From Clostridiaceae bacterium BRH_c20a (lineage in GTDB: Bacteria > Bacillota > Peptococcia > Peptococcales > BICA1-8), in assembly GCA_000961765.1 (NCBI GenBank), contig LADT01000042.1, positions 40,907 through 104,906 of the forward strand: DNA of 64,000 nucleotides, in the 5' to 3' direction. The position numbers and the translations under genes were made by a program. Below, piece by piece: positions 12,656 through 63,131 of this stretch (positions are counted from its first letter, which is position 1; the number at the start of each line of letters is the position of its first letter). Under the pieces are notes generated by a model that saw only the letters and a list, made by a program, of their open reading frames with translations, made no database searches and had not been told where the DNA came from.

Positions 12656-12698
12656 AATAAAAAAGTAGGCGTATTTTAATAAAATTAGCTTTACTCGG

Positions 12699-13484: not shown

Positions 13485-13508
13485 GAAAAACCCTCCTTTA
13501 AATTTATA

Positions 13509-14387: not shown

Positions 14388-14557
14388 TTTTAGAACCTCC
14401 TTTTAGTATATTTATTAATACTCTTAGCCCAGGCTTTTTGATTTTCGAGTATTTTCACTATAAGTGTACAATTTATCACAATCCTCGACTATGGCAATTT
14501 ACACATATCTTTTTATTATTTTTGGTATATTAGCACAACATTATATATATTTTACAT

Positions 14558-14590
14558 AAAAAAACCCCCCACCAATTTACAATGGCAGGG
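14558..14590 (-). terminator. Rho-independent terminator after the flavoprotein gene
   Basis: Minus-strand RNA reads CCCUGCCAUUGUAAAUUGGUGGGG followed by GGUUUUUUU. Confidence 0.6.
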
Positions 14591-14691
14591 TTTGAAAGCA
14601 TGGGAAACTTCATATAAAGGGTTATAGTAATCCTTGCAGATAAGACCTAATTGCCTTTATTAAAAGCCGAAAGCTATCTAACACTTTGTAA

Positions 14692-15306: not shown

Positions 15307-15327
15307 TACCCACCTCTTTACTGCAAT

Positions 15328-43869: not shown

Positions 43870-44018
43870 GTCATCCCTCCTTTTGTTAATCATCGGGATT
43901 AAGAGTTAATCCCATAAGCTTGCCTATTATCTAAAATTGTAGCACGACACTAATCCTCAGTCATTGTCAGTGGAATCAATTTTCGCCTTGGTTTGTTGTG
44001 CACATTGTACAAAAGGAA

Positions 44019-44231
44019 GGGGACACACCTGCTGATACTGAGACAGTTTTTTAGCCAGGAATGTCCCCATTAAAGTGAAAAAACCTGCCTCGGCAGGTTT
44101 TTTGGGCAAAAACAGTGAAAGGGGACACACCTCCCTACAGAGTAATACTTTGCGGTCAGAGGAATGTCCCCATTAAAAAGAAAGGGGACGCACCTGCTGA
44201 GACTGAAAGTTTTTTAGCCAGGAATGTCCCC
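44019..44231 (+). repeat. Three same-orientation copies (44019-44068, 44121-44171, 44184-44231) of a ~50-nt hairpin element GGGGACRCACCT-N24-27-AGGAATGTCCCCATTAAA
   Basis: Read directly from the sequence. Copies 1 and 3 are near-identical including the loop, while copy 2 has a different loop. Related copies lie at 58383-58430 and (degenerate) 58176-58208. Confidence 0.85.
44078..44103 (-). terminator. Rho-independent (bidirectional-looking) terminator downstream of the PucR gene
   Basis: AAAAAACCTGCCTCGGCAGGTTTTTT: a perfect GC-rich stem flanked by A and T runs. Confidence 0.75.
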
Positions 44232-44274
44232 ATTAAAATAGTGCTACAGAAAAAAATTAAGTGAAATAGAGGAG

Positions 44275-45948
44275 CTATTCTGTTTCATTGTTTAAAAGCC
44301 CCTTTAGTTTCAAGGCCAACTGCAGTTTGAGTAAAGTATTATAATCATTTAAATCCATATTTAATATTTCTTTAATCTTGTCTAAGCGATAGGTAAAGGT
44401 ATTGCGGTGAATAAACATCTCCTTGGCAGCCTCAGAATAATTAAAATTACAATGAAAATAGGTTTCTAAGGTTTTTACCAGATCCATTTTATTATCTTTG
44501 TCAAAAAGCATTAATTTTTCAATACTTTCATGATAAATTTCTTTAAGCTTAGCTTTATCCAGTGAGTTTAAGAGGTGTTCAACAAAAAAATCTTCAAAAT
44601 AGAGCAGACAATCCTTCTTTTGTTGCATCTTAGCCCCTAATTTGATTGCCTCTACAGCATTAGCATAGCTTTCATGGACCAACAGGGCATTTTTAATGGT
44701 ACCCACTCCGATGGAAACAGTTAACCCACTGATATTTTTATAAATATGAGACTTTATGTCATAGGCTAACTGTTTAGTAATTTCCCGACTTCTCTCCTTT
44801 GGATTGTGTTGCAGGATAATAACTATCTGGTCACTCTGACTAAAGGTTACCGCTTTAAGATTATTATTGGCTAATATTTCATCTACCAGGGCTGAAAGCT
44901 TTCTTTTCAACTTCTGGGCACGGAAATCACTGCCTTCCATTTCTTCCAAATAAATCTTTGTAAAATGGTCTACATCCAAGACCATACAAATATAAAAGGA
45001 ACTTGGATTGATTCCATAAGCGGTACCTCTTCTAGCTAAAATTTCCCGGGATTTTATATTGCCTGATAAATAATCACTAAAAAAGTCTACTTTTAGTCTA
45101 TTGCGCATTTCGGAAAAGGCCGTATTTTTTAACAACTCTAAGCCCACTACGGTAGCTGCATGTTCAATAGCGACAATATCCGGCTCCTCTAGTTCCTCCA
45201 CATTTTGCCAGATGGTAATATGTCCGTACAGTTTCTTTTCGGACATAACCAGATAAATTATCCGCTTAATCTCATGGTCATCAATAAAAATTTTGTCCTC
45301 TAGGTATTTCCTGTTTCCGTTGATAATCTCCTGCATAGTCTGATTATCAATAGGACTTTCAAAAATCAAAAGTTTACTTAAGGGAATTTGTGCTTCAGGA
45401 TGATTATACAAGCTTAAGCTTTTCCAGTTGGCATCAGAAATGGAAATGCTATTATTGACAAAGCTCGACAATAACTCGGCAATCTCATTGAGTCCGCCGC
45501 CCTTTAAAGCCAGTTTGGTAAACCAGTCATGTATTTGGTGGGACCTTTCAATTTTCCTGGCTTGACAGACTAATATTTCTTTCATCATCTCATTCATGAT
45601 TTCTGCAATATTATCTTCAAAGGGGATTTCTATCAAGGGTAAACCTTCCTGATCGGCCAAATCAATCATGTGTTGAGGAATGGTTCTAAAAAACCTTTTC
45701 ACTTTAATGCCTAAACCGGCACATTTTTTTTCGTTTAGATCGAGAATAAGCTGTTTTTGTTCATTAATATCATTACGAATAAAATATCCTGTGGTCACAA
45801 TAAACTGATTTTCCTTGGTCCAGTTAACAAAATCGGGGGCATCCATCTGATTGACCGAGCTGATCATTCTGTCTACGCCTCTGCTTCCGCCTATTACTTT
45901 ACACCCTTTTAATGCTTCCAACTTTAAGGCCTCAGACACCTTGATCAT
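44275..45948 (-). CDS. PucR-family transcriptional regulator
   Basis: 557 aa. N-terminal PucR-type domain, a GGDEF-like middle region, and a C-terminal HTH (YSEAAKEMFIHRNTFTYRLDKIKEIL). Confidence 0.85.
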   Translation of the reverse strand: MIKVSEALKLEALKGCKVIGGSRGVDRMISSVNQMDAPDFVNWTKENQFIVTTGYFIRNDINEQKQLILDLNEKKCAGLGIKVKRFFRTIPQHMIDLADQEGLPLIEIPFEDNIAEIMNEMMKEILVCQARKIERSHQIHDWFTKLALKGGGLNEIAELLSSFVNNSISISDANWKSLSLYNHPEAQIPLSKLLIFESPIDNQTMQEIINGNRKYLEDKIFIDDHEIKRIIYLVMSEKKLYGHITIWQNVEELEEPDIVAIEHAATVVGLELLKNTAFSEMRNRLKVDFFSDYLSGNIKSREILARRGTAYGINPSSFYICMVLDVDHFTKIYLEEMEGSDFRAQKLKRKLSALVDEILANNNLKAVTFSQSDQIVIILQHNPKERSREITKQLAYDIKSHIYKNISGLTVSIGVGTIKNALLVHESYANAVEAIKLGAKMQQKKDCLLYFEDFFVEHLLNSLDKAKLKEIYHESIEKLMLFDKDNKMDLVKTLETYFHCNFNYSEAAKEMFIHRNTFTYRLDKIKEILNMDLNDYNTLLKLQLALKLKGLLNNETE

Positions 45949-45981
45949 TTCTCAAACCCTCCCTAAATCAATCCATTTAAT

Positions 45982-46194
45982 CTAACCTCCGGCGAGAACT
46001 GGAAGGACCTGAATGAAATCATCTTCCTCCAGCTCAAAATCTAAATCATTTACTATTCCAACATTGTTTCTTAATACCAGCACATCATTAAAGGAAACCT
46101 CCAATAAGTCTAATAGTCCCTTTAGGTTCATGGGGCCTTCAATATCTAAATCCTTCCTGTATGGATGCAAAACTTTTATTTTCAGCTGCCTCAC
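45982..46194 (-). CDS. Small MoaD/ThiS-like beta-grasp protein with C-terminal Gly-Gly
   Basis: 70 aa ending ...IQVLPVLAGG, the same C-terminal signature as 6261-6548. Confidence 0.55.
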   Translation of the reverse strand: MRQLKIKVLHPYRKDLDIEGPMNLKGLLDLLEVSFNDVLVLRNNVGIVNDLDFELEEDDFIQVLPVLAGG

Positions 46195-46212
46195 CCCATT
46201 TTTTACTATTAA

Positions 46213-47124
46213 CTATCCCAAATATTTTCTTGCTAAAAAATCCAATCCTAAATAAACGCCAGTCAGAAAGTCCTTACCTGAGGAATGACCAATAACAGCA
46301 ATAACAGGTAAGCAATCCCTGAATTGTTCCAGGTTATCTTGGTTTAAAGCTTTTATAAGCAGGTATATGGGCTGAGAGTAATAGTTTTGAAAAAAGTAAG
46401 CAATAAATTCAAAACTAATTTCCGTAGTAGAGGCTCTAGCCAAATGTAAAATTTCATCTTTTATACTTTCTACTATTCTACTATATTTTTCTTGTACTGT
46501 AAGTATGGTTAAAAAGCCTAACAAAAGATCATCTCCACTGGGTGTCAAGCCTATACCCAAACCCAATAACTGATCTATCCCTTTAATTATGAGGGTTTTA
46601 TCCTGATTTAGAAAGCCCTGCTTAATTTCTTCAGCAGCTGCGGATATTTTTTGCGCTAAAGCCTTCTCAATAGCAGTTAAGGCATTACTCTGGTCCCAAG
46701 CTATCAGAAAATGATAAAGATTTACCGGGCTTTCCCGTAGAAAATCCTTCATAGCCTTTAGATAATCAGAATAACATATGCTGTGTTTTTTTATCTCAAT
46801 TTTAGTTGAAAACTCTTGGGCACCTGCTAGGGAAAATGTATTTTCCCCGATTTGTATGTTTTGGTCCACAAGGCTTAAAACGGCTGTCTCGCCGGGTTTA
46901 AGGGATAAAAGAGTAAAATCATCAATTTCTGGTGAGCATAAACAGCTCATGGGTGTCTTGGCAACTTTTGCATTTTGCAGGGTTAAGAGTGGGCCCATAC
47001 GGGTTTTAATATTACAGGAAGAATTAAAGACCGAATGAACGGCACCAAATAGTCCACTAGAAGAATTCAATAAAAGCTTTGCCATTGGTGAACTTATTTC
47101 TGTAATTGGATAAACTCTGCCCAT
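46213..47124 (-). CDS. DUF2877 (YlbF-like) protein
   Basis: 303 aa. The motif GLGIGLTPSGDDLLLGFL is the signature I associate with DUF2877, the third component of the E. coli fdrA-ylbE-ylbF set. Confidence 0.65.
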   Translation of the reverse strand: MGRVYPITEISSPMAKLLLNSSSGLFGAVHSVFNSSCNIKTRMGPLLTLQNAKVAKTPMSCLCSPEIDDFTLLSLKPGETAVLSLVDQNIQIGENTFSLAGAQEFSTKIEIKKHSICYSDYLKAMKDFLRESPVNLYHFLIAWDQSNALTAIEKALAQKISAAAEEIKQGFLNQDKTLIIKGIDQLLGLGIGLTPSGDDLLLGFLTILTVQEKYSRIVESIKDEILHLARASTTEISFEFIAYFFQNYYSQPIYLLIKALNQDNLEQFRDCLPVIAVIGHSSGKDFLTGVYLGLDFLARKYLG

Positions 47125-47179
47125 AAGCCCTTTCCTCTCATTTAGTTTTAAAAAAAGCGCCTTAAAAGACGCTTTTTTT

Positions 47180-48325
47180 TTAGAAGAACCTTTTTTCTAT
47201 AATCTGGGGACTACGAAAAATATCAGAAGGGTTATTACACCCTAGTAAAGTGAATTGAGCTTTGTTGCCTTCTTGGATGCTAAATCTTTTTACATCAACA
47301 AGGCCCTTGCCGTTTTGGATCAGCATTTGAAAAATATCTGCCTGTTCATCGTCACTATAAAAACGCTGTACATAAGTTAGTAACTGTGCTACTTCAAACA
47401 CATTACCATTACCTAAGGGATTAAATTGGTCCTGTATATTATCAGTACCCAAGCTTACATTAACTCCCGCTAGCAGCAGTTTCTTCACTTCGGTGAGCCG
47501 TCGAGTGGCGATGGCTGTAGGGCAGACAATAACATTAATACCCGCTTTCTTGATGCCTTCAATATCTTTGCTAGCCTCCTCTTCAGAGATAACCGGCAAA
47601 GAACAGCAGTGAATAGCATTTACCCGTCCCTGGTAGCCCTCATTTATAGTCTTTTCGATTAAATAGGGCAGCATATGATCATCAGGTCTACCTGTTTCAT
47701 CTGCATGAAAATCAATGTCCACATCAAAGGCTTTGCCTAGTGCAAAAATAGTATCTATGTGCTCCTTTTTCCTGTCGGCATCCATGCTTGTATGACCGCC
47801 AACGCTGTCAGCACCCATACGTAAGGCTTCTTCAAGGAGCTCTTTAGTTTCCGGGAACCTATTAAAGCCTTCCTGAGAGAAAGCAGTAACGTGGATATCC
47901 ATCATATCCCGGACTTCTGCTTTTAGTTCTAATACAGCCTCAATACCCTTTAAGCCAACCAGAGGGTCCACATCCACATTGGTTCTGATGCCGATCACAC
48001 CGTTTTGTCTAGACATCCTGATAACTTCCCGGGCCCGTTCCTTAATATCCTCTTTGGTAAAGGTTTCTTTTAGCTCCCTGACCCAGCCGGCCCGTACAGG
48101 GGGTGCTTCATCCTGGTACGGTTTTCGTCCAATAATTAAGGATTTATCAATATGGGCATGGGCATTAATTACACCGCTAATCACTATCTTTCCTTGGGCA
48201 TCAAAAACATCACACTGGTTAATGTCAATATTAGCGGCTATCTTTTTGATAATATTATTTTCCACATAAATATCCTGCAGTGTATTACCATCTAGGAGAT
48301 TAGCATTTTTAATAAGCTTGTTCAT
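47180..48325 (-). CDS. Amidohydrolase of the cytosine-deaminase / AtzC (N-isopropylammelide aminohydrolase) / creatinine-deaminase type
   Basis: Start trimmed to MNKLIKNANLL (RBS AGGAGTG). Contains GVINAHAHIDKS, RTNVDVD, VTAFSQEGF, DVDIDFHADE, AIHCCS and SLGTDNIQDQFNPLGNGN. Confidence 0.8.
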   Translation of the reverse strand: MNKLIKNANLLDGNTLQDIYVENNIIKKIAANIDINQCDVFDAQGKIVISGVINAHAHIDKSLIIGRKPYQDEAPPVRAGWVRELKETFTKEDIKERAREVIRMSRQNGVIGIRTNVDVDPLVGLKGIEAVLELKAEVRDMMDIHVTAFSQEGFNRFPETKELLEEALRMGADSVGGHTSMDADRKKEHIDTIFALGKAFDVDIDFHADETGRPDDHMLPYLIEKTINEGYQGRVNAIHCCSLPVISEEEASKDIEGIKKAGINVIVCPTAIATRRLTEVKKLLLAGVNVSLGTDNIQDQFNPLGNGNVFEVAQLLTYVQRFYSDDEQADIFQMLIQNGKGLVDVKRFSIQEGNKAQFTLLGCNNPSDIFRSPQIIEKRFF

Positions 48326-48335
48326 TAAGTCACTC

Positions 48336-49436
48336 CTATTCGGCCTTAACAATAACAGCCAAGAGATTTGCCCCCAGAGGACCTTGGTGCTCGGCTCCTG
48401 CAGAAGCTAAAATCATCGGATCACCGATTAGGGAAGCTACTACAGCATTAGCTACCGCTTTAGCCATAATCCCGGAATAGCCGGCTAAAAAGTCAGTTTT
48501 AATGGTATTTCTCCTGCCTCTGACTGCCCCTACGGAATCAGCCCCGGCGTTAACAAAGATATTAACAACTCTCTGCGCTTCTTCTTTGGAAGGCATACAG
48601 TCAAATTTAAGGCCAGCACTTCTTAAGGCATCTTTAGCTCCTTCTACATCTAGCTGATCCTTCATTACACCGCTGCCCACATAATATTTACTGTTAGATT
48701 TTGAAGAATTACCCATAAGAACTATACGGCAAGCTACCTGTTCGCCACCGGCAGAAGTAGATGCCTTATTTGAATAAAATCCCCAGTTGCTGCAGATATC
48801 TTCCTGCTTTAAAGCTGCAAAGTCAACTTCTCCTAAAGCCACAGCCACACCTAGGGCTGCAGCTCCTTTAGCCAGGCTGCTGGCTTTTCCTAAATCTTCC
48901 GAAACCACGGCTTGGCCCCTGTTTTTAGCATCATTAACCCTAGCGGCAGTCATAGCCGGTAGTTTTACTTCTACACAATGGACATCTTCAACATTATCAA
49001 TACCGGCATCCTGTATTGCCTCTTTAACAGCTTCAGCCACTAATCGCACCTGCTCTAAGGTCCCGTATTCTTCAGGTTTAAGTACCGGTGTGTTGGTAAT
49101 TCCTAAGGCAAAACACTTTTTAGTGTTATCCCCTTTTTCGGCTAGAACCTTCTTGGTAAATACTGTATAATGAGGACTCATAAGACCACCGGTCAAACCG
49201 ATCATCAACATAGGAATTCTATCAAAAACCTCTTGCCTGGTAATTCCCAGTTTTTCAGATAATAGAACCTGAAAAGCCAGAGTGGCATATCCCCTGTCAT
49301 GTCCATCTCCTTCAGTCTGAGCGATAATAGCTGCAATTTCTTCGGGAATAATTTCACCCTGATTAATCATTCTTTCCAACTCAGACACATCACCGGGATG
49401 AGCCATAGGCAATTTGTAAACATTAACATCAAACAT
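48336..49436 (-). CDS. Ring-opening amidohydrolase family protein (cyanuric acid hydrolase AtzD/TrzD / barbiturase family), divergent
   Basis: Start trimmed to MFDVNVYKLP (RBS GGAGGTG). Contains VHCVEVKLPAMT, ASTSAGGE and VRGRRNT, with the C-terminal SAGAEHQGP matching the family signature GGAEHQGP. Confidence 0.8.
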   Translation of the reverse strand: MFDVNVYKLPMAHPGDVSELERMINQGEIIPEEIAAIIAQTEGDGHDRGYATLAFQVLLSEKLGITRQEVFDRIPMLMIGLTGGLMSPHYTVFTKKVLAEKGDNTKKCFALGITNTPVLKPEEYGTLEQVRLVAEAVKEAIQDAGIDNVEDVHCVEVKLPAMTAARVNDAKNRGQAVVSEDLGKASSLAKGAAALGVAVALGEVDFAALKQEDICSNWGFYSNKASTSAGGEQVACRIVLMGNSSKSNSKYYVGSGVMKDQLDVEGAKDALRSAGLKFDCMPSKEEAQRVVNIFVNAGADSVGAVRGRRNTIKTDFLAGYSGIMAKAVANAVVASLIGDPMILASAGAEHQGPLGANLLAVIVKAE

Positions 49437-49575
49437 CAACTGCACCTCCAGAGCTTTTGTTTATATTATTCGTCACAAATATACCATACTACAACCCTTT
49501 GGTCATTGTAATTTATAACCCAAGGAAACCGTAAGCTATTGTGCATCTTGCCCAACTTGGTGCCATTTTAACAAC

Positions 49576-50148
49576 TTATTCTCTGCTGCCAGGTTTATAG
49601 ATGGGTATTCCTTGTTTGCATAAGGGGCAATCATTAGGGTCATAATTATTCATACTTATTGTTACCAAGGAGAAATACGGAACTGTCAGTTTAGCCAAAC
49701 CATTACTACGGTCAACTATAGAGCCTACAGCTAAAACTTCACCTCCCAATCCTTCCACTAAATCAATAACTTCCTGAGAGGAAAGTCCTGTTGTGATGAC
49801 ATCCTCGACCACTAAAACCTTTTGACCAGGTTTAATACTAAACATTCTTCTTAGCTGAGCTTTCCCCTCCACTTTTTCAGTGAAAATACCGGGGACCCCC
49901 AAATAACGAGCAACTTCATAAGCGACTATGATGCCTCCCATGGCAGGGCCAATGACGATATCCGGTTTATCTTGGCAAAAGTGCTCGGCAAGGGTAGTAC
50001 ACACCTTTTCAGATAAATCAGGTTCTTTTAATAGTTGTGCGCACTGTATATACACCTCACTATGTAAGCCGGAACTAAATTTGAAGTGCCCTTCTTTAAA
50101 AGCATCTACCTTTTTCAGCATTTCTAATACTTCATTGGAATCTAACAT
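49576..50148 (-). CDS. pyrE: Orotate phosphoribosyltransferase
   Basis: Start trimmed to MLDSNEVLEMLKK (RBS AGAGGAGA). Contains the PRPP loop VLVVEDVITTGLSS. Confidence 0.85.
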   Translation of the reverse strand: MLDSNEVLEMLKKVDAFKEGHFKFSSGLHSEVYIQCAQLLKEPDLSEKVCTTLAEHFCQDKPDIVIGPAMGGIIVAYEVARYLGVPGIFTEKVEGKAQLRRMFSIKPGQKVLVVEDVITTGLSSQEVIDLVEGLGGEVLAVGSIVDRSNGLAKLTVPYFSLVTISMNNYDPNDCPLCKQGIPIYKPGSRE

Positions 50149-50188
50149 AATTATCCATCTCCTCTTTGTAAATTTTTTATGCTTTAAC

Positions 50189-50296
50189 AAAAAAACCTTT
50201 TATCCAATCGCATAAGACTCCCTCTTCTATAAGCGGGAGATAAGGAATTAGGATAAGTCTCCCTAAGTTCAGGTGGAGTCAAAACTCCATCTGAAC
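50189..50296 (-). promoter_or_regulatory. Structured pyrF-pyrE spacer: a strong hairpin (50267-50296) plus a second composite stem ending in U7 (50189-50245); possible internal attenuator/terminator
   Basis: Minus-strand RNA reads GUUCAGAUGGAGUUUUGACUCCACCUGAAC, then CCUUAUCUCCC...GGGAGUCUUAUGCGAUUGGAUAAAAGG-UUUUUUU. Alternative GGGAG/CUCCC pairings are possible. Confidence 0.3.
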
Positions 50297-50306
50297 AAGT
50301 TCGGCT

Positions 50307-51017
50307 TTATATGGTCACCATTTCAGTGACAATGTCCTTGGCGGCCTGGTTAGGATTAATACTTTTCGTTATAGGTCGTCCTACTACAAGATAATCTGCA
50401 CCCATCTTTATTGCTTCCTGGGGTGTGGTAATCCTTTTTTGATCTTCGAGCAAGGTTCCCCGAGGCCGAACCCCCGGACAAACTGTCATAAATTCCTGAC
50501 CACATACTGTTTTTATTTGATTTGCTTCCTGGGGGGAACAAACTACACCATCCAGACCTGACTTTTGACAAAGCTGGGCTAGATTCATTACTGTTTCTGG
50601 GATAGTATATTTATAGCCTACCTGACTAAAGCTCTCTATATCAAAGCTTGTCAATACTGTAACACCGATTATCAAAGGAACCTTAAACCCGTTATTGAGA
50701 GCAGTATTTTTAACTGTTTCCACCGTAGTGGACATCATTACCCCCCCTCCGGAAGCATGAACATTAAACATATCAACACCTAAGCCCGCCGCCCACTTGG
50801 CAGCCTGGGTAACGGTATTGGGAATATCATGAAACTTTAGGTCCAGGAAAATCTTTTTTTCCTTAGTCTTTAAGTAATCTAGAATCTCCCCTCTGGTATT
50901 TAGAAATAATTCCAATCCTACTTTGTAAAAATTTGCTGCATCATCCAAAACATCAATAAGTTCTTTCGCCTTTGCTAGGCTTGGTACATCTAAGGCCACA
51001 ATTAATCTGTTTTCCAT
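50307..51017 (-). CDS. pyrF: Orotidine-5'-phosphate decarboxylase
   Basis: 236 aa. Contains LIVALDV, FLDLKFHDIPNTV and VVGRPI. Confidence 0.9.
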   Translation of the reverse strand: MENRLIVALDVPSLAKAKELIDVLDDAANFYKVGLELFLNTRGEILDYLKTKEKKIFLDLKFHDIPNTVTQAAKWAAGLGVDMFNVHASGGGVMMSTTVETVKNTALNNGFKVPLIIGVTVLTSFDIESFSQVGYKYTIPETVMNLAQLCQKSGLDGVVCSPQEANQIKTVCGQEFMTVCPGVRPRGTLLEDQKRITTPQEAIKMGADYLVVGRPITKSINPNQAAKDIVTEMVTI

Positions 51018-51075
51018 CTTCTCTCTCCTTTCTTTTGCTTAAGGGATATTTTGAATGTCAGTGTGATGACTAATG

Positions 51076-51113
51076 GGTAAGTCTGCACGACAGTGCTACA
51101 GTGCTACAGAAAA
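51076..51113 (-). repeat. 38-bp element TTTTCTGTAGCACTGTAGCACTGTCGTGCAGACTTACC (minus-strand reading); inverted partner of 54651-54688
   Basis: By direct comparison, 34/38 positions are identical to the plus-strand sequence at 54651-54688. Confidence 0.85.
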
Positions 51114-51185
51114 TGACAGGTTAAGGTTTCGCTTCGCTAGGCTGAGGTTAAGAAGAACCATAAGCAAGTCTGGACACTGAGCACT

Positions 51186-51260
51186 AATCACCAGTCACTA
51201 ATAGACCATAGACCATCGACTATAGACTATAGACTTTACTAGTCACCAGTCACCAGTCAC
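51186..51260. repeat. Short tandem repeats: (GACCATA/GACTATA)x5 at 51204-51238 and (AGTCACC)x3 at 51239-51260
   Basis: Read directly from the sequence. They lie immediately downstream of the carB stop. Confidence 0.8.
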
Positions 51261-51264
51261 TTTA

Positions 51265-54200
51265 CTAATACATCTGCAGCGGTTTGACTCTAATCATTGA
51301 TTCTAAAACCTGAACTATAGCCAAAACTAAATCTAGTGAGGTAAGACAGGGCACGTTGAACTCCACTGCCGCTCTCCGGATTCTAAACCCATCCCGGGCT
51401 GGAATTTTCCCTTTAGTCAAGGTATTGAGGACCAAATCTATTTCCCCTTTTTTAATCACATCAACCACATGGGGACTTCCTTCCTTAATTTTGTTCACTT
51501 CCCTGACCTCTAAGCCATGTTTTCGTAAAAGTTGGGCAGTTCCGCTGGTAGCAACTAAATTAAATCCTAAAGCCTTTAACCTTTTTATACTGGGTAAAGC
51601 CTCTTCTTTATCCTTATCAGCAATAGTTACCAGTACATTTCCCCTGCGGGGAATTACATATCCTGCAGCAATAAGAGCTTTATATAGAGCCTTATTAGGA
51701 TCTTTATCAAGTCCTAAAACCTCTCCAGTAGACTTCATTTCCGGACCTAAGGAGGTTTCTACATCGATAAGCTTACTAAAAGAAAACACCGGCATCTTTA
51801 CTGCTACAAGATCTTTAGCCTTAGCAAGTCCCGGGATATAATCTAATTCCCGTATAGTTTTGCCTAAAATAACCTCAGTTGCGATTTCCATCATAGGAAT
51901 TCCTGTTACTTTGCTTAAATATGGAACAGTCCGACTGGAGCGGGGATTGACCTCAATTACATAAACTTCATCTTCATGAATAACATATTGAATATTTAGT
52001 AACCCCTTAATTTTTAAAGCTATGGCCAGCTTTTCTGTCTTTTCTACCAGCTTATTTACTTCTTCTTCCTTTAAGGACATGGGAGGATATACAGCGGTAC
52101 TATCCCCAGAGTGGACACCAGCCCTTTCAATATGCTCCATTATTCCCGGAATCAAAACCTCGCTGCCATCACAGATGGCGTCTATTTCTACTTCCTTCCC
52201 AGTTAAATACCTATCAACCAGCACAGGATGGTCTGGGGAGATTTTAACAGCATTCGCCAAATACTCCTCTAGTTCCTCTAGTGAATAAACTATCTCCATA
52301 GCTCTTCCCCCCAAAACATAGGAGGGTCTGACTAAGACGGGAAAGCCTAATTGTTCTGCAATATTTTTAGCTTCCTTGACATTTCTGGCTGTTTTACCGG
52401 AAGGTCGGACAATGTTTAGCTCTTCTAAAATTGCTTCAAATTTTTCCCGATCTTCAGCCCCATCAATATTTTCCACTTGAGTGCCCAAAATCCTTATCCC
52501 TGCATCATGTAATGGTCTAGCCAGGTTGATGGCAGTCTGGCCGCCAAATTGGACAATTACACCCAGAGGCTTTTCTTTTTCTATAACATTTAACACGTCC
52601 TCTTTTGTTAAGGGTTCAAAATATAGCCTGTCAGATGTGTCAAAGTCTGTACTTACTGTTTCCGGATTGTTATTAATAACAATAGACTCATAGCCGGCAT
52701 TTCTTAGACCCCAGGCACAATGTACTGAGCAGTAGTCAAACTCTATGCCCTGTCCAATCCGGATGGGACCGCTCCCTAATACCACAACCTTTTTGTTGTT
52801 ATTTGTAGGTTCAACCTCATCTTTTTCATTGTAGCTGGAATAATAGTAGGGGGTAACTGCTTCAAATTCTCCTGCACAGGTATCAACCATTCTAAAAACT
52901 GCCCCAAGCTTTAATTGTTTTCTCAGCTCATATACCTCTTGCTCCGAAACACCCCAAGCCTCTGCAATCTGCAAATCACTAAAGCCTAATTCTTTAGCCT
53001 CTTTGAGTTTTTCACTATCAAATTTATTATTGGGCAGTATTGCTTTTTCCCAATTGACCAGCGTCGCAAATTTATTTAAAAAGAAGACATCAACATCTGT
53101 TAGTTTATGAATTTCTTTTATTAAGTAGCCTCTTCTTAAAGCTTCACCAAGGAGGAACAGTCTCTCATCATCAGGGTAAATGAGTCTTTCTTCAAGCTCC
53201 TCTTTACTGATGCTTTGGAATTGGGGATTTAGTAAACCCTTAACATCTAATTCTAAGGAACGGATTCCTTTCTGTAAAGCCATTTCAAAATTACGTCCTA
53301 TAGCCATAATTTCTCCGGTCGCCTTCATTTGTGAACCTAATTTTCTATTGCCTGATTGGAATTTATCAAAAGGCCAGCGGGGTATTTTGACAACTACATA
53401 ATCTAAAGCCGGCTCAAAAGCCGCTAAAGTTTTATCTGTTACACTATTAGGTATTTCATCTAAAAAATATCCTAAAGCAATCTTAGCCGCAATCTTGGCA
53501 ATTGGATAACCGGTTGCCTTAGAAGCAAGAGCACTAGATCTACTGACCCTGGGATTAACCTCTATCACAATATATTCCAGCTTATTAGGATTTAGGGCAA
53601 ACTGAACATTACAGCCTCCTTCAATCCCTAAAGCCCTAATTATTTTTATTGATGCAGTCCGTAATAGTTGATATTCTACATCCGTTAAGGTTTGACTAGG
53701 AGCTACCACAATACTGTCTCCTGTATGCACACCTACAGCATCAATGTTCTCCATATTACAAATAGTAATACAGGTATCATTGGCATCCCGCATTACTTCG
53801 TATTCTATTTCTTTCCAGCCCTTAACACTCTTTTCAATTAAGAGCTGGTTAATTGCACTATATTTTAAGCCTTTAGCTACAATCTCCTTAAGCTCAGCAT
53901 CAGTATGGGCAAAGCCACCCCCGGAGCCACCTAGGGTATAAGCAGGCCGGACAATAAGGGGATAGCCTATTTCCTCAGCCAAAAGTTTAGCTTCTTCATA
54001 ATTATTGGCAATACCACTCTCTGGTACCGGCTCATCTATTTCCTTTAATAAAGCTTTAAACATTTCCCTGTCTTCCGCTTTTCGGATAGCCTCCAAGGGC
54101 GTTCCTAAAAGTCTAACACCTGCTTTTTCCAAAATTCCGCTTTCCGCTAACTCTTGGGCCAGGTTAAGACCCACCTGTCCGCCTAGAGTGGCTAATAGCC

Positions 54201-54453
54201 CTTGAGGTCGTTCCGCATAAATAATTTCTTCTAAAAACTCTTTAGTTAAGGGCTCAATATATACACGGTCAGCCATGTTTTCATCGGTCATTATGGTGGC
54301 AGGATTGCTGTTTACTAATACTACCTCTATTCCTTCGTCCTTTAAGGCTCGGCAGGCCTGGGTACCAGCATAATCGAATTCCGCCGCCTGCCCGATTATT
54401 ATCGGACCAGAACCGATGACCATTACCTTTTTGATATCTTGACGTTTAGGCAT
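51265..54453 (-). CDS. carB: Carbamoyl-phosphate synthase large subunit
   Basis: 1062 aa from [30 protein letters not shown] (RBS GAAAGGAGA). Duplicated ATP-grasp halves and a C-terminal MGS-like domain. Confidence 0.95.
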
Positions 54454-54472
54454 GTGCTTTCTCCTTTCATGC

Positions 54473-54688
54473 TTAAGTGTGTAAGTGTTTAAGTGTTTAA
54501 GTTGAGATGTTGGGTCTGACAATGCTTTGGAGTGGACATTACGCGTCTGACAATACTACTGGGTAAATTTTTTGCGTCTGACAAATACTTTACGGGCATA
54601 CTAGTGCGTCTGACACAGGATTGGTTTGTGCAACATCCGGGTTTTAGTATTTTTCTGTAGCACTGTAGCACTGTCCTGCAGTCTAGCC
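54473..54688 (+). repeat. Repeat-filled carA-carB spacer: (TAAGTGTK)x4 at 54473-54506; four ~31-bp units with core GYGTCTGACA (cores at 54514, 54545, 54576, 54608); 38-bp CTGTAGCAC element at 54651-54688
   Basis: Read directly from the sequence. The spacer is 282 bp, where carA and carB are normally adjacent. Confidence 0.85.
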
Positions 54689-54735
54689 TGTGAGCCGTCA
54701 CACTAACATGCAGTTTATCCTATAAGCCTACACAC

Positions 54736-55812
54736 TTAAGTTTTATTTAGTTTGGCCAGAAATTCTTCAAACAAATATGCCGAATCTTGAGGACCTGGGG
54801 CTGCTTCGGGGTGATACTGTACACTGCCTACCGGCAGTCTTTTATGCCTTAATCCTTCGACCGTGCCATCATTTAGATTAATATGGGTTACTTCTACATC
54901 TTTATTCAGGCTTTCTGAGTCTACAGCAAAGCCATGATTTTGGGAGGTGATATATACCCGACCGGTTTGTAAATCTTTGACTGGATGGTTTCCACCTCGG
55001 TGACCAAATTTTAGTTTATAGGTTTTGCCGCCTAAGGCTAAGCCTAGCAGCTGGTGACCCATGCAAATACCAAACATAGGTATTTTTTGGGGTATTAACC
55101 TTTTAATGGTTTCTACAGCAAAAGCTACATCCTGAGGATCGCCCGGTCCGTTAGAGAGCAAAATCCCATTGGGTTTATGGGCTAATATCTCTTCTGCTTT
55201 TGTATCAGAAGGAACTACTATCACCGTACAGCCCTGTTCCTGTAATTTCCGTATTGAGTTGTTTTTAACACCAAAATCCATTACAACAACCCTTTTAGCC
55301 CCTCCCGGAAGGACATAGCTAAAAGGAGTGCTTACTTCCTTGACCAGCTGCTGTCCCGAGAGGGGTGGTATCCCTTCGGTCATACTTTTGAGCTCTTCTA
55401 TCCCCGTACCATCATTGGCAACTATGCCCGCCATTGTTCCGTGATACCGAAGATGCTTAGTAAGAGTCCGAGTATCTATGCCTTGTATTCCTACTAGTTT
55501 ATGTTCAACCAAAAACGCCTGAAAGCTTTGATTAGCCCGCCAACTACTAGGTTCCTCACAAGCTTCCTTAACTATCACACCCCGCCCGAAAACCTTGCGG
55601 CCTTCCCAGTCGGTAGTATTAGTTCCGTAGTTACCTATTAGGGGATAAGTAAAAGTAATGATTTCCCCAGCATAAGACGGGTCAGTAAGTATCTCTTGAT
55701 AGCCCACCATGCTTGTATTAAATACCACCTCGCCTTGAGTCCTGCCCCTCCAACCCAGGCCTTTTCCAGGGAAAACCGTACCATCTGCTAAGACAAGATA
55801 AGCCTTATTCAT
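54736..55812 (-). CDS. carA: Carbamoyl-phosphate synthase small (glutaminase) subunit
   Basis: Start trimmed to MNKAYLVLADGTVF. Contains the GATase triad Cys in FGICMGHQLL and the HPE tail (VQYHPEA). Confidence 0.95.
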   Translation of the reverse strand: MNKAYLVLADGTVFPGKGLGWRGRTQGEVVFNTSMVGYQEILTDPSYAGEIITFTYPLIGNYGTNTTDWEGRKVFGRGVIVKEACEEPSSWRANQSFQAFLVEHKLVGIQGIDTRTLTKHLRYHGTMAGIVANDGTGIEELKSMTEGIPPLSGQQLVKEVSTPFSYVLPGGAKRVVVMDFGVKNNSIRKLQEQGCTVIVVPSDTKAEEILAHKPNGILLSNGPGDPQDVAFAVETIKRLIPQKIPMFGICMGHQLLGLALGGKTYKLKFGHRGGNHPVKDLQTGRVYITSQNHGFAVDSESLNKDVEVTHINLNDGTVEGLRHKRLPVGSVQYHPEAAPGPQDSAYLFEEFLAKLNKT

Positions 55813-57094
55813 TGACTTCACCCTTTTCCATAACAATTTTTCCAGCTTTTATTGTTAGTATCGGCCACCCGGTAAGTTCCCAATCCTGAAAGGGAGTATT
55901 TTTGCCCAAGGAATAAAATGTTTCTCTTTTTACTTTTTGTGTAAGCTCTGGATCAATTACAGTGATATCAGCATTTTTTCCAGCTTGAACAGTGCCTCTA
56001 TCTATCCCCAATATTTTTGCCGGGGTTGTAGTAAATGTCTTTACCAGATCGAGCATACTAAGATGCCCCGCTAGATAAAGGTTTTGCCAGGCTAAAGGTA
56101 CAGCTGTTTCTAAGCCAGAGATACCATATGGTGCATAATCAAACTCTACATCTTTTTCCTCGCGAGCATGGGGCGCATGGTCAGTTGCAATGCAATCTAT
56201 AGTACCGTCCTGTAAACCCTGGATTAAGGCATAAACATCTTCCTCTGTTCTCAATGGAGGATTAACTTTAGTATTAGTGCAATAACCTTTTACAGCAGCA
56301 TCTGTCAAGGAAAAATGATGGGGTGTAACCTCAGCAGTCACCTTAACTCCTCTTTTTTTAGCGGCACGAATTAATTCTACTCCGCTTTTAGTTGACACAT
56401 GGGCAATATGAATTCGGCCTTTTGTTAGCTCCGCTAAGCGGATGTCCCGGTCGATAATAATATCCTCTACTTCTCTGGGAATACCAGCTAAGCCTAACTG
56501 AGTGCTGATTAACCCTTCATGCATTACGCCGGAGCCAGCTAGCTCCTCATCTTCACAGTGACTAATAATCAATAGATCCAGCATTTTTGCATAATCTAAT
56601 GCTCTACGCATAACACCACTATTCCTTACAGAATGTCCATCCTCAGATAAAGCTATAGCACCACACTCATGTAATATAGCAAACTCGGTCAACTCTTTCC
56701 CTTCCTGACCTTTAGTTATACTTGCTATTGGATAAACCTCTACTAGGTCATACCGCTTTGCTCGAGCTAGGATAAGCTCGATTACTCCTTCTGTGTCAGC
56801 AACCGGATTGGTATTGGGCATACAGGCTATTCCAGTAAAGCCTCCCCGAGCTGCAGCCCGGCAGCCACTTAGAATTGTTTCTTTATGCTCAAAGCCCGGT
56901 TCTCTAAGATGAACATGCATATCAATAAATCCGGGAGCAACTATTTTTTCATTAACATCTATTACCTTGATATCAGGAGAAGCTTTAATATCCTTTCCTA
57001 ACTCCACTACTTTACTATTTGCTATAAGAATATCCATTTTCTCACAGATGTTCTGACTGGGGTCAACCAACAACCCATTCTTAAGCAGTAACAT
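55805..57094 (-). CDS. pyrC: Dihydroorotase
   Basis: Start trimmed to MLLLKNGLLVDP (RBS GGGGGAGG). Contains FIDMHVHLREPG and ATDHAPH. Overlaps both the pyrB stop and the carA start. Confidence 0.9.
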   Translation of the reverse strand: MLLLKNGLLVDPSQNICEKMDILIANSKVVELGKDIKASPDIKVIDVNEKIVAPGFIDMHVHLREPGFEHKETILSGCRAAARGGFTGIACMPNTNPVADTEGVIELILARAKRYDLVEVYPIASITKGQEGKELTEFAILHECGAIALSEDGHSVRNSGVMRRALDYAKMLDLLIISHCEDEELAGSGVMHEGLISTQLGLAGIPREVEDIIIDRDIRLAELTKGRIHIAHVSTKSGVELIRAAKKRGVKVTAEVTPHHFSLTDAAVKGYCTNTKVNPPLRTEEDVYALIQGLQDGTIDCIATDHAPHAREEKDVEFDYAPYGISGLETAVPLAWQNLYLAGHLSMLDLVKTFTTTPAKILGIDRGTVQAGKNADITVIDPELTQKVKRETFYSLGKNTPFQDWELTGWPILTIKAGKIVMEKGEVNE

Positions 57095-58016
57095 TAAATT
57101 TACCTCCCCCCATGGCATATAATAACGCCATTCGTATTGCTACACCATTGGTCACCTGCTCTTCTATTACTGATTGAGAGGACTCAGCAACCTCAGCAGT
57201 TATTTCAATTCCCCGATTCATGGGACCGGGATGCATAACCAAAGCATTATCCTGGGCAAGCTTCAGCTTTTCTTGATTAAGTCCATAAAGCTTTGCGTAC
57301 TCTCTAGTGGAAGGAAACAGCCCTTTCTTCTGCCTTTCCAGTTGAATCCTAAGCACCATTACTACATCTGCTCCCTCTAGAGCTTTTTTCATATCCCAGG
57401 TAACCTTTACTCCCAGCTTTTCCACCTGTGCGGGTAAAAGGGTTGGTGGTGCACAAACCCAGACATCAGCACCAAAGGCATTTAAACCCAATATATTTGA
57501 ACGGGCAACCCTACTGTGCAAAACATCCCCAATTATAGCAATTTTTTTTCCGCTAAGTGTACCTAGGTGACCTAGCATAGTAAACATGTCCAAGAGTGCC
57601 TGTGTAGGATGCTCATGGGTTCCATCACCGGCATTGATCACTCGAGCGTTTATGGCTTTAGCCAAGATATGGTGGGCACCACTGGCAGGATGGCGCATTA
57701 TAACTACATCAGCTCCCATCCTCTCAATGGTTTTAGCTGTATCCCGCAGACTTTCACCCTTAGCGACACTTGAAGTGCCGGCACTGATATTAATTACATC
57801 GGCACCCATGTATTTGCCTGCTAGTTCAAAGGAGCTTCGAGTCCGAGTACTATTTTCATAAAAAAGATTAATGATTGCCTTTCCCCTAAGGGTAGGTACC
57901 TTTTTAATTTCCCGGTGAATAATTTCTTTCATGGATTTTGCATTAATGAATATTTCCTTCATTTCTTCAACAGATAAATCAGATAAGCTTATGAGGTCTT
58001 TACTTTTAATTCCCAT
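57081..58016 (-). CDS. pyrB: Aspartate carbamoyltransferase catalytic subunit
   Basis: 311 aa. Contains ENSTRTRSSFE, HEHPTQALLD and HPGPMNRG. Confidence 0.95.
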   Translation of the reverse strand: MGIKSKDLISLSDLSVEEMKEIFINAKSMKEIIHREIKKVPTLRGKAIINLFYENSTRTRSSFELAGKYMGADVINISAGTSSVAKGESLRDTAKTIERMGADVVIMRHPASGAHHILAKAINARVINAGDGTHEHPTQALLDMFTMLGHLGTLSGKKIAIIGDVLHSRVARSNILGLNAFGADVWVCAPPTLLPAQVEKLGVKVTWDMKKALEGADVVMVLRIQLERQKKGLFPSTREYAKLYGLNQEKLKLAQDNALVMHPGPMNRGIEITAEVAESSQSVIEEQVTNGVAIRMALLYAMGGGKFNVTA

Positions 58017-58046
58017 GGTTAAACCTCCTTTTAGTTGCTGGTGGCG

Positions 58047-58084
58047 CTAGTTGTTAGTGGCTAGTGGCTAGTGACTGGTTACTG
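58047..58084. repeat. Tandem heptamers CTAGTTG-TTAGTGG-CTAGTGG-CTAGTGA-CTGGTTA in the pyrB 5' leader
   Basis: Read directly from the sequence. The reverse complement is related to the (AGTCACC)n run at 51239-51260. Confidence 0.75.
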
Positions 58085-58211
58085 ATAATTAGTCTATGGT
58101 CTTCTTTTATCATGTGGTCTAGTGATTGTTATTAGTAACTAGTTTTTGGTAAAACACTAAAATATATTATGGATCGGGGGAACACCTCTTCACTTTGAGG
58201 AATTCCCCTAA

Positions 58212-58359
58212 TTAATAAAGCCGGGTCAGAGGACCCGGCAGGTAGACTAGTTATACTACAGCCAGCTTTACAGTAAAAACTGTAGTACTGTAGCACTGTA
58301 GCACTGCTAGAACTGAGCTACAGTTTCTCCTTGCCGGACTCTCAGGACCGATTTAAAGG
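58212..58359 (-). promoter_or_regulatory. PyrR-type transcription attenuator 1 (binding loop + terminator), proximal to pyrB
   Basis: Minus-strand RNA reads CCUUUAAAUCGGUCCUGAGAGUCCGGCAAGG, against the B. subtilis PyrR loop consensus UUUAA..RUCCAGAGAGGYU..AAGG. It is followed by the terminator GCCGGGUCCUCUGACCCGGC-UUUAUU. Confidence 0.7.
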
Positions 58360-58382
58360 GAATAATATTCAATTATATGCAC

Positions 58383-58430
58383 GGGGACACACCTCTTTTA
58401 TGGTTTATCATTGGGATGAGGAATGTCCCC
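58383..58430 (+). repeat. Copy of the GGGGACAC...GGAATGTCCCC hairpin element between the two attenuators
   Basis: GGGGACACACCT-N24-AGGAATGTCCCC, with the same termini as the 44019-44231 copies. Confidence 0.8.
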
Positions 58431-58460
58431 AAATAATTATGGGCGCGATAAACTTTATAT

Positions 58461-58610
58461 TAATAAAGCCGGGTCTTAAAAGACCCGGCAGGTAGACTAA
58501 TTATACTACAGTCAGCTTTACAGTAAAAACTGTAGAACTGTAGAACTGTAGAACTGCTAGAACTAACTACAGATTCTTCCTTGCCAGCCTCACAGGACCG
58601 AACTTAAAGG
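58461..58610 (-). promoter_or_regulatory. PyrR-type transcription attenuator 2 (distal; first after the promoter)
   Basis: Minus-strand RNA reads CCUUUAAGUUCGGUCCUGUGAGGCUGGCAAGG, followed by the terminator GCCGGGUCUUUUAAGACCCGGC-UUUAUU. By eye it is about 85-90% identical to attenuator 1. Confidence 0.7.
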
Positions 58611-58627
58611 ACTATTTATTTTTATTA

Positions 58628-58656
58628 ATTATAACCTTCCAAAATAAAATTGACAA
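58628..58656 (-). promoter_or_regulatory. Sigma-A-type promoter of the pyr operon (-35 TTGTCA, 17-nt spacer, -10 TATAAT)
   Basis: Minus-strand reading TTGTCAattttattttggaaggtTATAAT, lying about 15-20 nt upstream of the first PyrR loop. Confidence 0.6.
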
Positions 58657-58713
58657 GTTAAATTTACTAAAAATATGTTTACTGCTATAATTTTGGCTAG
58701 TGGGTAATTTTTG

Positions 58714-58963
58714 GAGTGACATATACTACAGGGTGAACATTATTGGGCTGACATTCTTCTGGGCGAATATTACGCGTCTGACATATACTTTTGGGTGATC
58801 ATTATGGGTCTGACATACTCCTACGCCATATTTTGCGTCTGACACAACCATTAACAGATATTCTATCAGATGCTAAACTAAACCCTTAAGCTATTGTCAG
58901 ACGCGAAAGACTGTCCCCATAGCAATGTCAGACCCATAAGTTAAACCCCTTAGTCTATCAGAC
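58714..58963. repeat. Head-to-head array of ~31-bp units with core G(C/G)GTCTGACA: five direct units (cores 58714, 58746, 58776, 58808, 58837) facing three inverted units (TGTCAGAC at 58895, 58926; TATCAGAC at 58956)
   Basis: Read directly from the sequence. The unit is the same as in the carA-carB spacer. Confidence 0.85.
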
Positions 58964-59029
58964 GTATTATCTTCACCCAGAAGTACATTTAACCAATGAA
59001 CTAGACCCATTAGCAAAAAGGAGGACAAA

Positions 59030-59674
59030 ATGAGGAAAATCAAAGGAATACTATTTGACCTAGACGGTACTTTAATCAATACCAACGAGCTAATAATTGA
59101 AACCTTCCAATACACTTATAAAAATATTCTAAACCTAGATATCCCCCGTGAGGAAATTGTCCAGTATTTTGGTGAACCCCTTATTGATACCCTTGCCAAA
59201 TACGGTCCTGACAAGGTTGAACTATTGCTAAAAACCTACCGTGATTATAACTTCCAGAGACATGATGAAGTAACTACCATTTTTCCCGGTGTCAAAGATA
59301 CAGTCATTACCCTAAAAAATCAAGGCTATCAATTGGCAGTTGTAACCTCAAAAAAAAATATTGGAGCCCGCAAGGGCTTAGATCTATTTGGGTTAACCCC
59401 ATATATTGATTTTTTTGTAGGATATGATGACACAGATAAACATAAGCCCAATCCTGACCCTGCTCTAAAAGCTTTATCTGGCTTAAAATTAACACCCCAG
59501 GAAGCACTCATGATTGGAGACAGCCCTTATGATATCTTATGTGGTAAAAATGCTGGGACCCATACTGCTGTAGTTAAATATAGCGAGCATTCCTTGGAAA
59601 AACTAATGGAATTAAAACCTGATTATGTATTAAATCATTTGGCAGATTTACTCCAAATACTAAATCGTCCGTGA
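59030..59674 (+). CDS. HAD-IA family phosphatase (PpaX / phosphoglycolate-phosphatase-like)
   Basis: 214 aa. Contains ILFDLDGTLINT, VVTSK and MIGDSPYDILCG. RBS AAAGGAGGA. This is the only convincing plus-strand gene in the window. Confidence 0.8.
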   Translation: MRKIKGILFDLDGTLINTNELIIETFQYTYKNILNLDIPREEIVQYFGEPLIDTLAKYGPDKVELLLKTYRDYNFQRHDEVTTIFPGVKDTVITLKNQGYQLAVVTSKKNIGARKGLDLFGLTPYIDFFVGYDDTDKHKPNPDPALKALSGLKLTPQEALMIGDSPYDILCGKNAGTHTAVVKYSEHSLEKLMELKPDYVLNHLADLLQILNRP

Positions 59675-62475: not shown

Positions 62476-62719
62476 ATTAATACCTCCCTATTTATTTAAA
62501 GCAATTTATTCTCTAAACCTTAATTAATTACTGTCGACTAGCGACTAGCTATTAGTTATTATTCCAAAAATGTAGGCTTAGATTTATTTATTTGTCTTTG
62601 TTAGACAAAAAATTACTAGAAAAATTTACTTCTTCCTGTAAATAAGACATTAAGGGGACAATTAACTCAATAATCATTAACATTTCCATTTGAATTACTA
62701 TTAATCCTTTTATTCAGAT

Positions 62720-62974: not shown

Positions 62975-63131
62975 CATCGTGACATCGTGTCGCCGTGTCA
63001 TCGATTAAAAGGCATCTGCTATTGGGTTGAGATATTGGGATGCATCTCATGCAAGTGGAGATTACTGGATGCATCTGCTTAAAGGTCTAGCTTAAGGGAT
63101 GCATCAAAAAGATTGGCATTCATCTGATGCC
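62975..63131 (+). repeat. Tandem octamers (CATCGTGA-CATCGTGT-CGCCGTGT-CATCGATT, 62975-63006), then a ~30-bp-period array with core GG(G)ATGCATCT (GCATC at 63012, 63042, 63071, 63101, and CATCT at 63121)
   Basis: Read directly from the sequence. It lies between the riboswitch promoter region and the stop of the M20D gene. Confidence 0.8.

Follow-up and report, generated by a model that had tools for sequence, protein, structure and literature searches.

The stretch of DNA analyzed here, called the window in the following, comprises 64,000 nucleotides of contig LADT01000042.1 from Clostridiaceae bacterium BRH_c20a and harbors a pyr operon in which carB is bracketed by an inverted repeat, with one copy in the carA-carB spacer and the other in the carB-pyrF spacer. 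This arrangement raises the question whether the two copies act together on carB, either in the DNA or in the transcript, or whether they came to lie there independently. Most probably (at about 80% by our own estimate), the inverted repeat is a by-product of two members of a dispersed mosaic repeat family and has no dedicated function.

The inverted repeat itself is real. The two 38-mers (Table 1) differed by four mismatches, and 34 of 38 positions were thus identical, as the earlier note on this DNA had reported from inspection of the letters. The plus-strand copy reads TTTTCTGTAGCACTGTAGCACTGTCCTGCAGTCTAGCC and the reverse complement of the other copy reads TTTTCTGTAGCACTGTAGCACTGTCGTGCAGACTTACC; the longest exact run common to both is 25 nt. 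Upon shuffling, the 38-mer was matched in none of 100 sequences, and the 14-mer CTGTAGCACTGTAG, with up to two mismatches allowed, matched eight times as compared to 0.23 matches expected from shuffles. A repeat search extended both copies to arms of 77 nt each, 79% identical and separated by 3537 nt, with similarity reaching the carA stop codon on one side and the pyrF ribosome-binding site on the other. The repeat was confirmed and had even been understated.

Both arms are built alike, from a T-run followed by 2.5 copies of the octamer CTGTAGCA and two units of about 32 nt with the consensus CGTCACACTGACATGCAGTATAGCCTATGAGC. An incomplete third unit at 54728-54740 follows arm A and extends over the carA stop codon. 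The end of arm B is 19 nt away from the pyrF ATG, and the pyrF ribosome-binding site comes immediately after the arm. Each arm is one part of a larger mosaic. On the plus strand, the carA-carB cassette consists of a TTAAGTGT octamer run (54473-54502), GCGTCTGACA-type cores arrayed about 31 nt apart (54512, 54530, 54543, 54574 and 54606), the T-run, the CTGTAGCA octamer run and the 32-nt units. The carB-pyrF cassette, read on the mRNA, starts at the carB stop codon with a GTGACTG heptamer run (51241-51260) and an AGTCTAT heptamer run (51201-51235), which are followed by a CTAGCGAAGCGAAACCTTAACCT module (about 51114-51150), the T-run, octamers, 32-nt units and the pyrF ribosome-binding site. Tandem Repeats Finder (TRF) listed CTGTAGCA x2.5 at two sites, ATAGACT x5, AGTCACC x2.9, TTAAGTGT x3.8 and GCTAGTG x4. 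Furthermore, the single octamer unit described before near 44241-44250 was found, lying beside an A-run.

Copies of the same module are frequent in this lineage. The exact 19-mer (CTGTAGCA)2CTG was present at no fewer than 12 sites, in at least 11 blocks and on at least 10 contigs of the metagenome-assembled genome (MAG) Peptococcaceae bacterium BICA1-8, which stems from the same porewater project as L001, the contig identical to the window; none of the BICA1-8 blocks examined overlaps the window. The 19-mer was also found in the related Bacillota MAG JBMOKT (L010). In most copies the octamers were followed by the same 32-nt units, and often the CTAGCGAAGCG...AATCTTAATCT module and T-run before them were shared too, as were the heptamer runs and their order. 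Tandem runs of 7-8 nt in the same style were found in BICA1-8 spacers, and a metagenome scan with CTGTAGCACTGTAGCACTGWC returned 23 stretches, at least 16 of them on eight long contigs of the JGI metagenome Ga0209643. All copies examined were intergenic; outside the octamers they were 65-77% alike, and the number of modules varied.

The orientation of the copies was determined at about 35 loci, using crude gene calls (longest open reading frames (ORFs) of at least 80 aa). About 19 copies resembled the carA-side copy in having their units toward the upstream stop codon (antisense on the mRNA), about 11 had them toward the downstream ribosome-binding site (sense, as on the pyrF side), and a few were located between convergent or divergent genes. 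A fixed orientation, with units nearly always toward the upstream stop codon, had appeared strong in the first 10 loci and was abandoned at this ratio of about 19 to 11. The census largely yielded what the earlier note had itself named as evidence against its proposals, namely a common intergenic repeat in mixed orientation.

The module does not appear to encode an RNA structure of its own. The module of CTGTAGCA octamers and 32-nt unit, as well as the unit alone, folded no better than shuffled sequences (z = -0.3 to +1.1), and RNAalifold applied to 13 copies gave -0.58 kcal/mol with neither covariation nor a consensus structure. Rfam at gathering thresholds returned no match in the whole window, and a permissive scan of 50900-59100 gave two PyrR elements below threshold and otherwise noise; therefore, the arms do not belong to a known RNA family. 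No published description of the repeat was found in the searchable literature, by sequence or by organism, including searches for BICA1-8 and for heptamer repeats in Desulfotomaculum. The mosaic repeat family of this lineage is apparently undescribed.

Sequences identical to the (CTGTAGCA)n run were also observed in intergenic DNA of unrelated phyla (L003-L093). About 70 of these loci come from rumen Bacteroidales/Prevotella; others belong to Peregrinibacteria (L004, L007, L048 and L057) or are represented by L037, L069, L084 and L088. The run always followed ...ATAAATATAAAATTTC...TTTTGAA in the rumen Bacteroidales, often as divergent pairs 110-140 nt apart, and was located among other 7-8-nt tandem runs in the candidate phyla radiation (CPR) and other phyla, as in the window. 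At these loci, no consistent relation to flanking ORFs was seen.

The two window copies were then compared with the rest of the family over the 66 nt following the octamers. The copy at 54670 on the carA side was most similar to copies in L041 (77%) and L010 (73%), the copy at 51093 on the pyrF side to copies in L105 (74%) and its ortholog L111 (73%), and the two were only 65% alike. By this measure, the two copies are not a special pair but ordinary members of the family, resembling each other no more than other pairs of members do.

The junctions of related pyr operons point in the same direction. The carA-carB spacer measures 331 nt in L121/L122 (carA 92% identical), where it is filled by a different unit subfamily (GTCGGCAT/ATGCCGAC) and forms a predicted giant local hairpin (-121 kcal/mol, z = -6.3) without a CTGTAGCA run. 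L094/L095 (carA 87%) carry an orthologous cassette of 217 nt with two units, 1.5 octamers, two GCGTCTGACA cores and ACACTTAA-type runs. The spacers of L096 (carA 84%) and L097 (carA 77%) are 34 nt and 76 nt long, respectively, both without the repeat. Apparently, this junction turns over fast among relatives. Immediately before the pyrF ribosome-binding site, the unit was kept in L094 (one octamer with one unit), in L096 (a single unit without octamer) and in L111; hence, it is older than the carA-side copy and independent of it. Orthologous spacers carry different numbers of octamers, units and cores, which shows expansion and contraction in situ. CarB is 81-88% identical and syntenic in all relatives, which argues that carB was not imported between the arms. 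The comparison of junctions in relatives, which the earlier note had asked for, gives the functional readings no backing.

A second, paralogous carA/carB pair was observed in BICA1-8 (L085, contig JUEF01000078.1, block 8001-16000), 57% and 66% identical to the genes of the window. Inverted arrays of 32-nt units take up all 454 nt of its carA-carB junction (506-959) and form a predicted giant hairpin (z = -4.1); thus, both carA-carB junctions of the lineage have been expanded.

We propose that the two arms belong, independently of each other, to a modular repeat family present in high copy number in the intergenic DNA of BICA1-8 and its relatives, and that their opposite orientation in the spacers on either side of carB would be happenstance. 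The module (T-run, (CTGTAGCA)n and between one and three units of about 32 nt) forms one block of larger mosaic cassettes, in which tandem runs of heptamers and octamers and further arrays with a period of about 31-32 nt also occur. Such cassettes take up the entire spacer between a stop codon and the ribosome-binding site of the following gene, and they grow, shrink and change through slippage of 7-8-nt and 32-nt units, as seen from the copy numbers in orthologous spacers. Transposition in trans may have carried them from locus to locus, or else recombination and gene conversion. Promoter- and terminator-like sites across 50200-59100 were no commoner than in shuffles, and the stronger ones lay outside both spacers; because neither spacer gave a promoter or terminator signal above chance, the cassettes are probably co-transcribed within the pyr operon.

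Several observations weigh against this account. The predicted duplex of the two copies in one transcript is very stable (-97.4 kcal/mol, net -57.5 kcal/mol), and both full copies of the window lie in adjacent spacers of one operon, which would be unlikely under random placement among about 50 spacers (about 4% by a rough estimate). The inverted arrangement, antisense after carA and sense before pyrF, is common to L094, and the census of orientations depended on simple gene calling. No transposase, target-site duplication or donor was identified, with no complete genome included in the search for a transposase. Finally, the mechanism of spread, the period of about 32 nt and the conservation of the primary sequence of the unit are left unexplained.

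A different question is what the cassettes may do wherever they occur. They may have been selected to loop out, so that the stop codon comes close to the ribosome-binding site of the following gene, and may additionally provide a G-poor, unstructured landing zone, thereby preserving or tuning translational coupling and mRNA stability. This proposal concerns the whole family and does not compete with the by-product account of the inverted pair; we regard it as tentative and rather doubtful. On the mRNA, all eight spacers tested changed from G-rich at the stop codon to G-poor at the ribosome-binding site, irrespective of module orientation, and G made up 3-18% of the last 60 nt of the spacer segments before the ribosome-binding site as compared to 22% in the control. 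In the predicted fold, the 12-nt terminal inverted repeat of the carA-carB cassette forms a closing stem that places the carA stop codon beside the carB ribosome-binding site, and this pair is kept in L094. Whole-spacer giant hairpins were predicted for L121 and L085, with the z values given above, and the pyrB ribosome-binding site has CCAGTCA- and CTAGCCA-type runs directly next to it in each of the four relatives. However, L096 manages with 34 nt and no cassette, the spacers of the window as wholes were not significantly structured (z = -1.5 and -0.4), the polarity of G could equally be the signature of degenerate or decaying palindromes, and the sample of spacers was small and partly orthologous. 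Taken together, predicted folds and base composition suggest a shared constraint on the cassettes, under which the approach to the ribosome-binding site is kept free of structure and/or the spacer is looped out, and do not point to a carB-specific device. For hairpins of short tandemly repeated repetitive (STRR) sequences between hupS and hupL of cyanobacteria, roles in transcript stability or translational coupling have been proposed (PMC2670836).

Additionally, a giant imperfect palindrome was observed at 58714-58965, between the pyr promoter and a divergent gene for a HAD hydrolase. Five GCGTCTGACA-type cores on the plus strand (58714, 58745, 58774, 58806 and 58835) face three inverted ones (58895, 58926 and 58956), and the region 58700-58990 folded with -90.1 kcal/mol (z = -6.05). 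The palindrome is probably located within the 5' untranslated region (UTR) of the gene starting at 59030.

Among the explanations that give the pair a function at carB, pairing in the transcript survives best, and it is still improbable. Within the polycistronic pyr mRNA, the arms would pair over the intervening carB to give a duplex of about 77 bp, which would either be cut by RNase III, as at the stems flanking rRNA, or mask the pyrF leader, and expression of carB or pyrF would thereby be uncoupled from the rest of the operon. The net gain over the self-folds of the arms mentioned above has to be compared with -4.7 +/- 5.1 kcal/mol for shuffled partners, and the predicted duplex contains a perfect run of 25 bp. 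Furthermore, the arms are otherwise unstructured and hence free to pair, a single transcript is plausible as no terminator lies between them, and arm B comes within 19 nt of the pyrF start codon. The arrangement recurs in L094; however, the net gain there was only -14.8 kcal/mol and the longest complementary run 11 nt, because the numbers of units and octamers changed independently in the two arms. In L096 and L097 the carA-side arm is missing, in L096 the duplex cannot form, and L121, the closest relative, has a self-contained local hairpin at carA-carB and no octamer. The arms are also ordinary family members and not each other's closest relatives, and the 3.2 kb of translated carB between them disfavor pairing kinetically. 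Pairing across 3.5 kb and RNase III sites, both raised in the earlier note, thus found no support in L094, L096, L097 and L121, where complementarity is not kept. According to these predictions, long-range pairing would be thermodynamically possible in this genome, but it is not conserved as a property of the pyr operon.

A variant of this idea starts from cassettes that would be an as yet undescribed class of operon-internal RNA spacers throughout the lineage, folding so as to place each stop codon beside the next ribosome-binding site, of which a decayed pair at carB would have been co-opted as a processed duplex of about 77 bp resembling an rRNA stem. We consider this quite improbable; if true, carB would be released as a separate mRNA and the stoichiometry of CarA:CarB:PyrF would be set in this way. 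As with the RNase III stems flanking rRNA, long complementary sequences bracket a transcript segment of several kb and the potential for a duplex is far above chance. Unlike at those stems, the bracketed segment is translated mRNA, complementarity is not kept in relatives, and the duplex is a prediction only.

It is highly improbable that the inverted copies serve as recombination substrates which flip the 3.5-kb carB segment, be it as an on/off switch or as a source of instability. The inverted orientation and the exact core of 25 bp, a length close to the minimum required for RecA-dependent recombination in E. coli, favor it. A single orientation was found, however, at both junctions in the window and in L001, and likewise in L094 and L095, two relatives that come from different samples; L002 contributes the pyrF-side junction only. 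The genes called on L001 (pyr and allantoin-type genes only) include no recombinase, the arms are only 79% identical over 77 nt, and inversion would place carB antisense within an essential biosynthetic operon. A recombination-prone structure around carB, as suggested before, was accordingly not borne out.

Most improbable of all is the view that the two copies are the terminal inverted repeats of a miniature inverted-repeat transposable element (MITE) or composite transposon that brought carB into the operon: the inverted geometry, the dispersed family and contig breaks at the repeat speak for it, but carB is syntenic and 81-88% identical also in relatives without the carA-side copy, as fits vertical descent, the arms point outward from two different cassettes that each fill their own spacer, copies at other loci occur singly, and no target-site duplication was found at the cassette borders as compared to the empty L096 junction (34 nt), a comparison whose power is limited by divergence. 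With regard to the paired ends of a MITE, the carA-carB cassette carries a perfect terminal inverted repeat of 12 nt and the termini of the carB-pyrF cassette carry none; the two arms lie in different cassettes. The earlier hint at a MITE-like structure was right in direction, since the copies are members of a dispersed intergenic repeat family, but the notion of the copies as ends of a MITE was unsupported.

The octamer run recurs in the leader of the operon, where two PyrR attenuators, each with a predicted binding hairpin and terminator, precede pyrB (Table 1). In the predicted fold, the octamer run forms one arm of the central hairpin, and the CTGTAGAA run takes the same position in the other attenuator. 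The statement that the run is part of both attenuators holds, but their likeness to the arms does not go beyond the octamers, and Rfam, scanned permissively over 50900-59100, gave no PyrR element (RF00515) in either spacer. L096 and L097 also have two attenuators; in L096 GTGGCTA heptamer runs occupy the position of the octamers and in L097 there are no runs, which argues that the likeness comes down to a short tandem run of a kind typical of the lineage, serving to fill the stem.

The two attenuators lie in tandem before pyrB with neither pyrR nor pyrP between them, an arrangement that was kept in L096 (about 5190-5500) and L097 (about 5100-5480), the relatives whose carA is 84% and 77% identical. 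C/A-rich heptamer runs (CCAGTCA, CTAGCCA and CTAACCA on the mRNA) were seen immediately next to the pyrB ribosome-binding site in each of the relatives inspected, with differences in the exact sequence of the runs. They are located at 58020-58075 in the window, 120-200 in L094, 5740-5790 in L096, 5690-5760 in L097 and 1-30 in L121, and look like a conserved G-poor leader maintained by slippage.

Table 1. Repeat elements, genes and leader features of the pyr region, numbered from the first nucleotide of the window.
Feature	Position	Strand	Remarks
38-mer copy A	54651-54688	+	T-run, (CTGTAGCA)2.5, start of first 32-nt unit; antisense to pyr mRNA
38-mer copy B	51076-51113	-	sense on pyr mRNA
Extended arm A	54651-54727	+	octamer run 54655-54674; two 32-nt units 54665-54727
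Extended arm B	51037-51113	-	octamer run 51090-51109; two 32-nt units 51037-51099
carA-carB spacer cassette	54454-54735	-	282 nt, mosaic
Terminal inverted repeat of carA-carB cassette, left arm	54472-54483		CTTAAGTGTGTA, 12 nt perfect
Terminal inverted repeat of carA-carB cassette, right arm	54729-54740		TACACACTTAAG; overlaps carA stop codon
carB-pyrF spacer cassette	51018-51264	-	247 nt, mosaic
T-run and single-octamer remnant	~44240-44256	-	AGTGCTACAG then A7 on + strand
pyrE	49576-50190	-	
pyrF	50307-51017	-	
carB	51265-54453	-	
carA	54736-55812 or 55836	-	stop codon 54736-54738
pyrC	55805-57118	-	
pyrB	57081-58016	-	
PyrR attenuator 1	58211-58363	-	Rfam RF00515, 43.4 bits vs gathering score 54; octamer run 58279-58315
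PyrR attenuator 2	58459-58614	-	Rfam RF00515, 49.7 bits vs gathering score 54; CTGTAGAA run 58528-58564
Candidate pyr promoter	58656-58628	-	TTGTCA-17-TATAAT

According to the ORF calls and the gene table of L001, all pyr genes of the window are encoded on the minus strand, and the length of the carA-carB spacer agrees with the value given before. The region was 100% identical in L001, a contig of an independent ENA assembly from a rock-porewater metagenome (PRJNA257561). L002, a contig of a second assembly, ends within the carB-pyrF spacer; contigs break at the repeat element in L002, L043, L093 and L121, as is expected of a dispersed repeat.

Further repeats were observed in the same lineage. 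Arrays of GGATGCATC cores with a spacing of about 30 nt occur in several spacers in both orientations (window 63038-63130 and 62530-62560, L041 5700-5930, L096 12330-12490), one of them in the carB-pyrF spacer of L096. Another family consists of hairpins of the type GGGGACACACCT...(variable loop)...AGGAATGTCCCC, for which Rfam gave no match at gathering thresholds. Three of these hairpins are located upstream of an AllF-like gene (44019-44068, 44121-44171 and about 44185-44231), and each PyrR attenuator terminator is closely followed by a further one (58383-58430 and about 58176-58210). Directly 3' of pyrE, a gene cluster (window 40307-49445, L001 11582-20711) encodes a ring amidohydrolase of the AtzD/TrzD family, an amidohydrolase, AllH, a PucR-type regulator and AllF/AllG-like proteins; it may be a set for pyrimidine or ureide catabolism adjoining the biosynthetic operon.

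An eye-catching inverted repeat at an essential gene should not be taken as a regulatory or rearrangement device on the basis of sequence alone. What the locus brings to light is an uncultured deep-subsurface Peptococcaceae lineage with dozens of spacer-filling mosaic cassettes that turn over fast between close relatives and have widened normally tight junctions such as carA-carB. These cassettes offer a natural system for studying how operons tolerate or use long repetitive spacers, and they are a practical cause of assembly breaks in MAGs of the lineage.

Four known repeat systems invite comparison. The bacterial interspersed mosaic elements (BIMEs) of enterobacteria, built from repetitive extragenic palindromic (REP) units, are likewise dispersed in high copy number, located in transcribed intergenic DNA including operon-internal spacers, found in both orientations and composed as a mosaic of few motif types in recurring order. 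However, REP is defined by an imperfect-palindrome hairpin unit of about 35 nt, whereas neither the 32-nt unit nor the octamer module is palindromic; the units described here are in tandem with a period of about 32 nt and flanked by 7-8-nt runs, and the host belongs to the Bacillota and not to the Proteobacteria. The cyanobacterial STRR sequences share tandem runs of 7 nt (here also of 8 nt) in intergenic DNA including operon-internal spacers, often with hairpins. They differ in host phylum, and in the lineage studied here the short runs are one module among others, the cassettes containing 32-nt-unit arrays as well. CCAGTCA and CTAGCCA are similar to the published STRR heptamers in style only, a comparison made without aligning the sequences.

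The pneumococcal BOX elements, with the build boxA-boxB(n)-boxC, can be compared by description, not by sequence. They too are modular and intergenic, contain variable internal tandem units between end modules and are co-transcribed with their neighbors. Their sequences are unrelated to those of the cassettes, and the BOX A and C modules pair as a stem-loop, whereas the module of the arms has no intrinsic structure. The mycobacterial interspersed repetitive units (MIRUs) are 46-100 bp long and contain small in-frame ORFs that allow coupling, in contrast to the 32-nt unit, which is not a multiple of 3 and shows no evident ORF. In both systems, tandem arrays of short units lie in operon spacers, their ends overlap the flanking stop codon or ribosome-binding site, and the copy number varies between close relatives.

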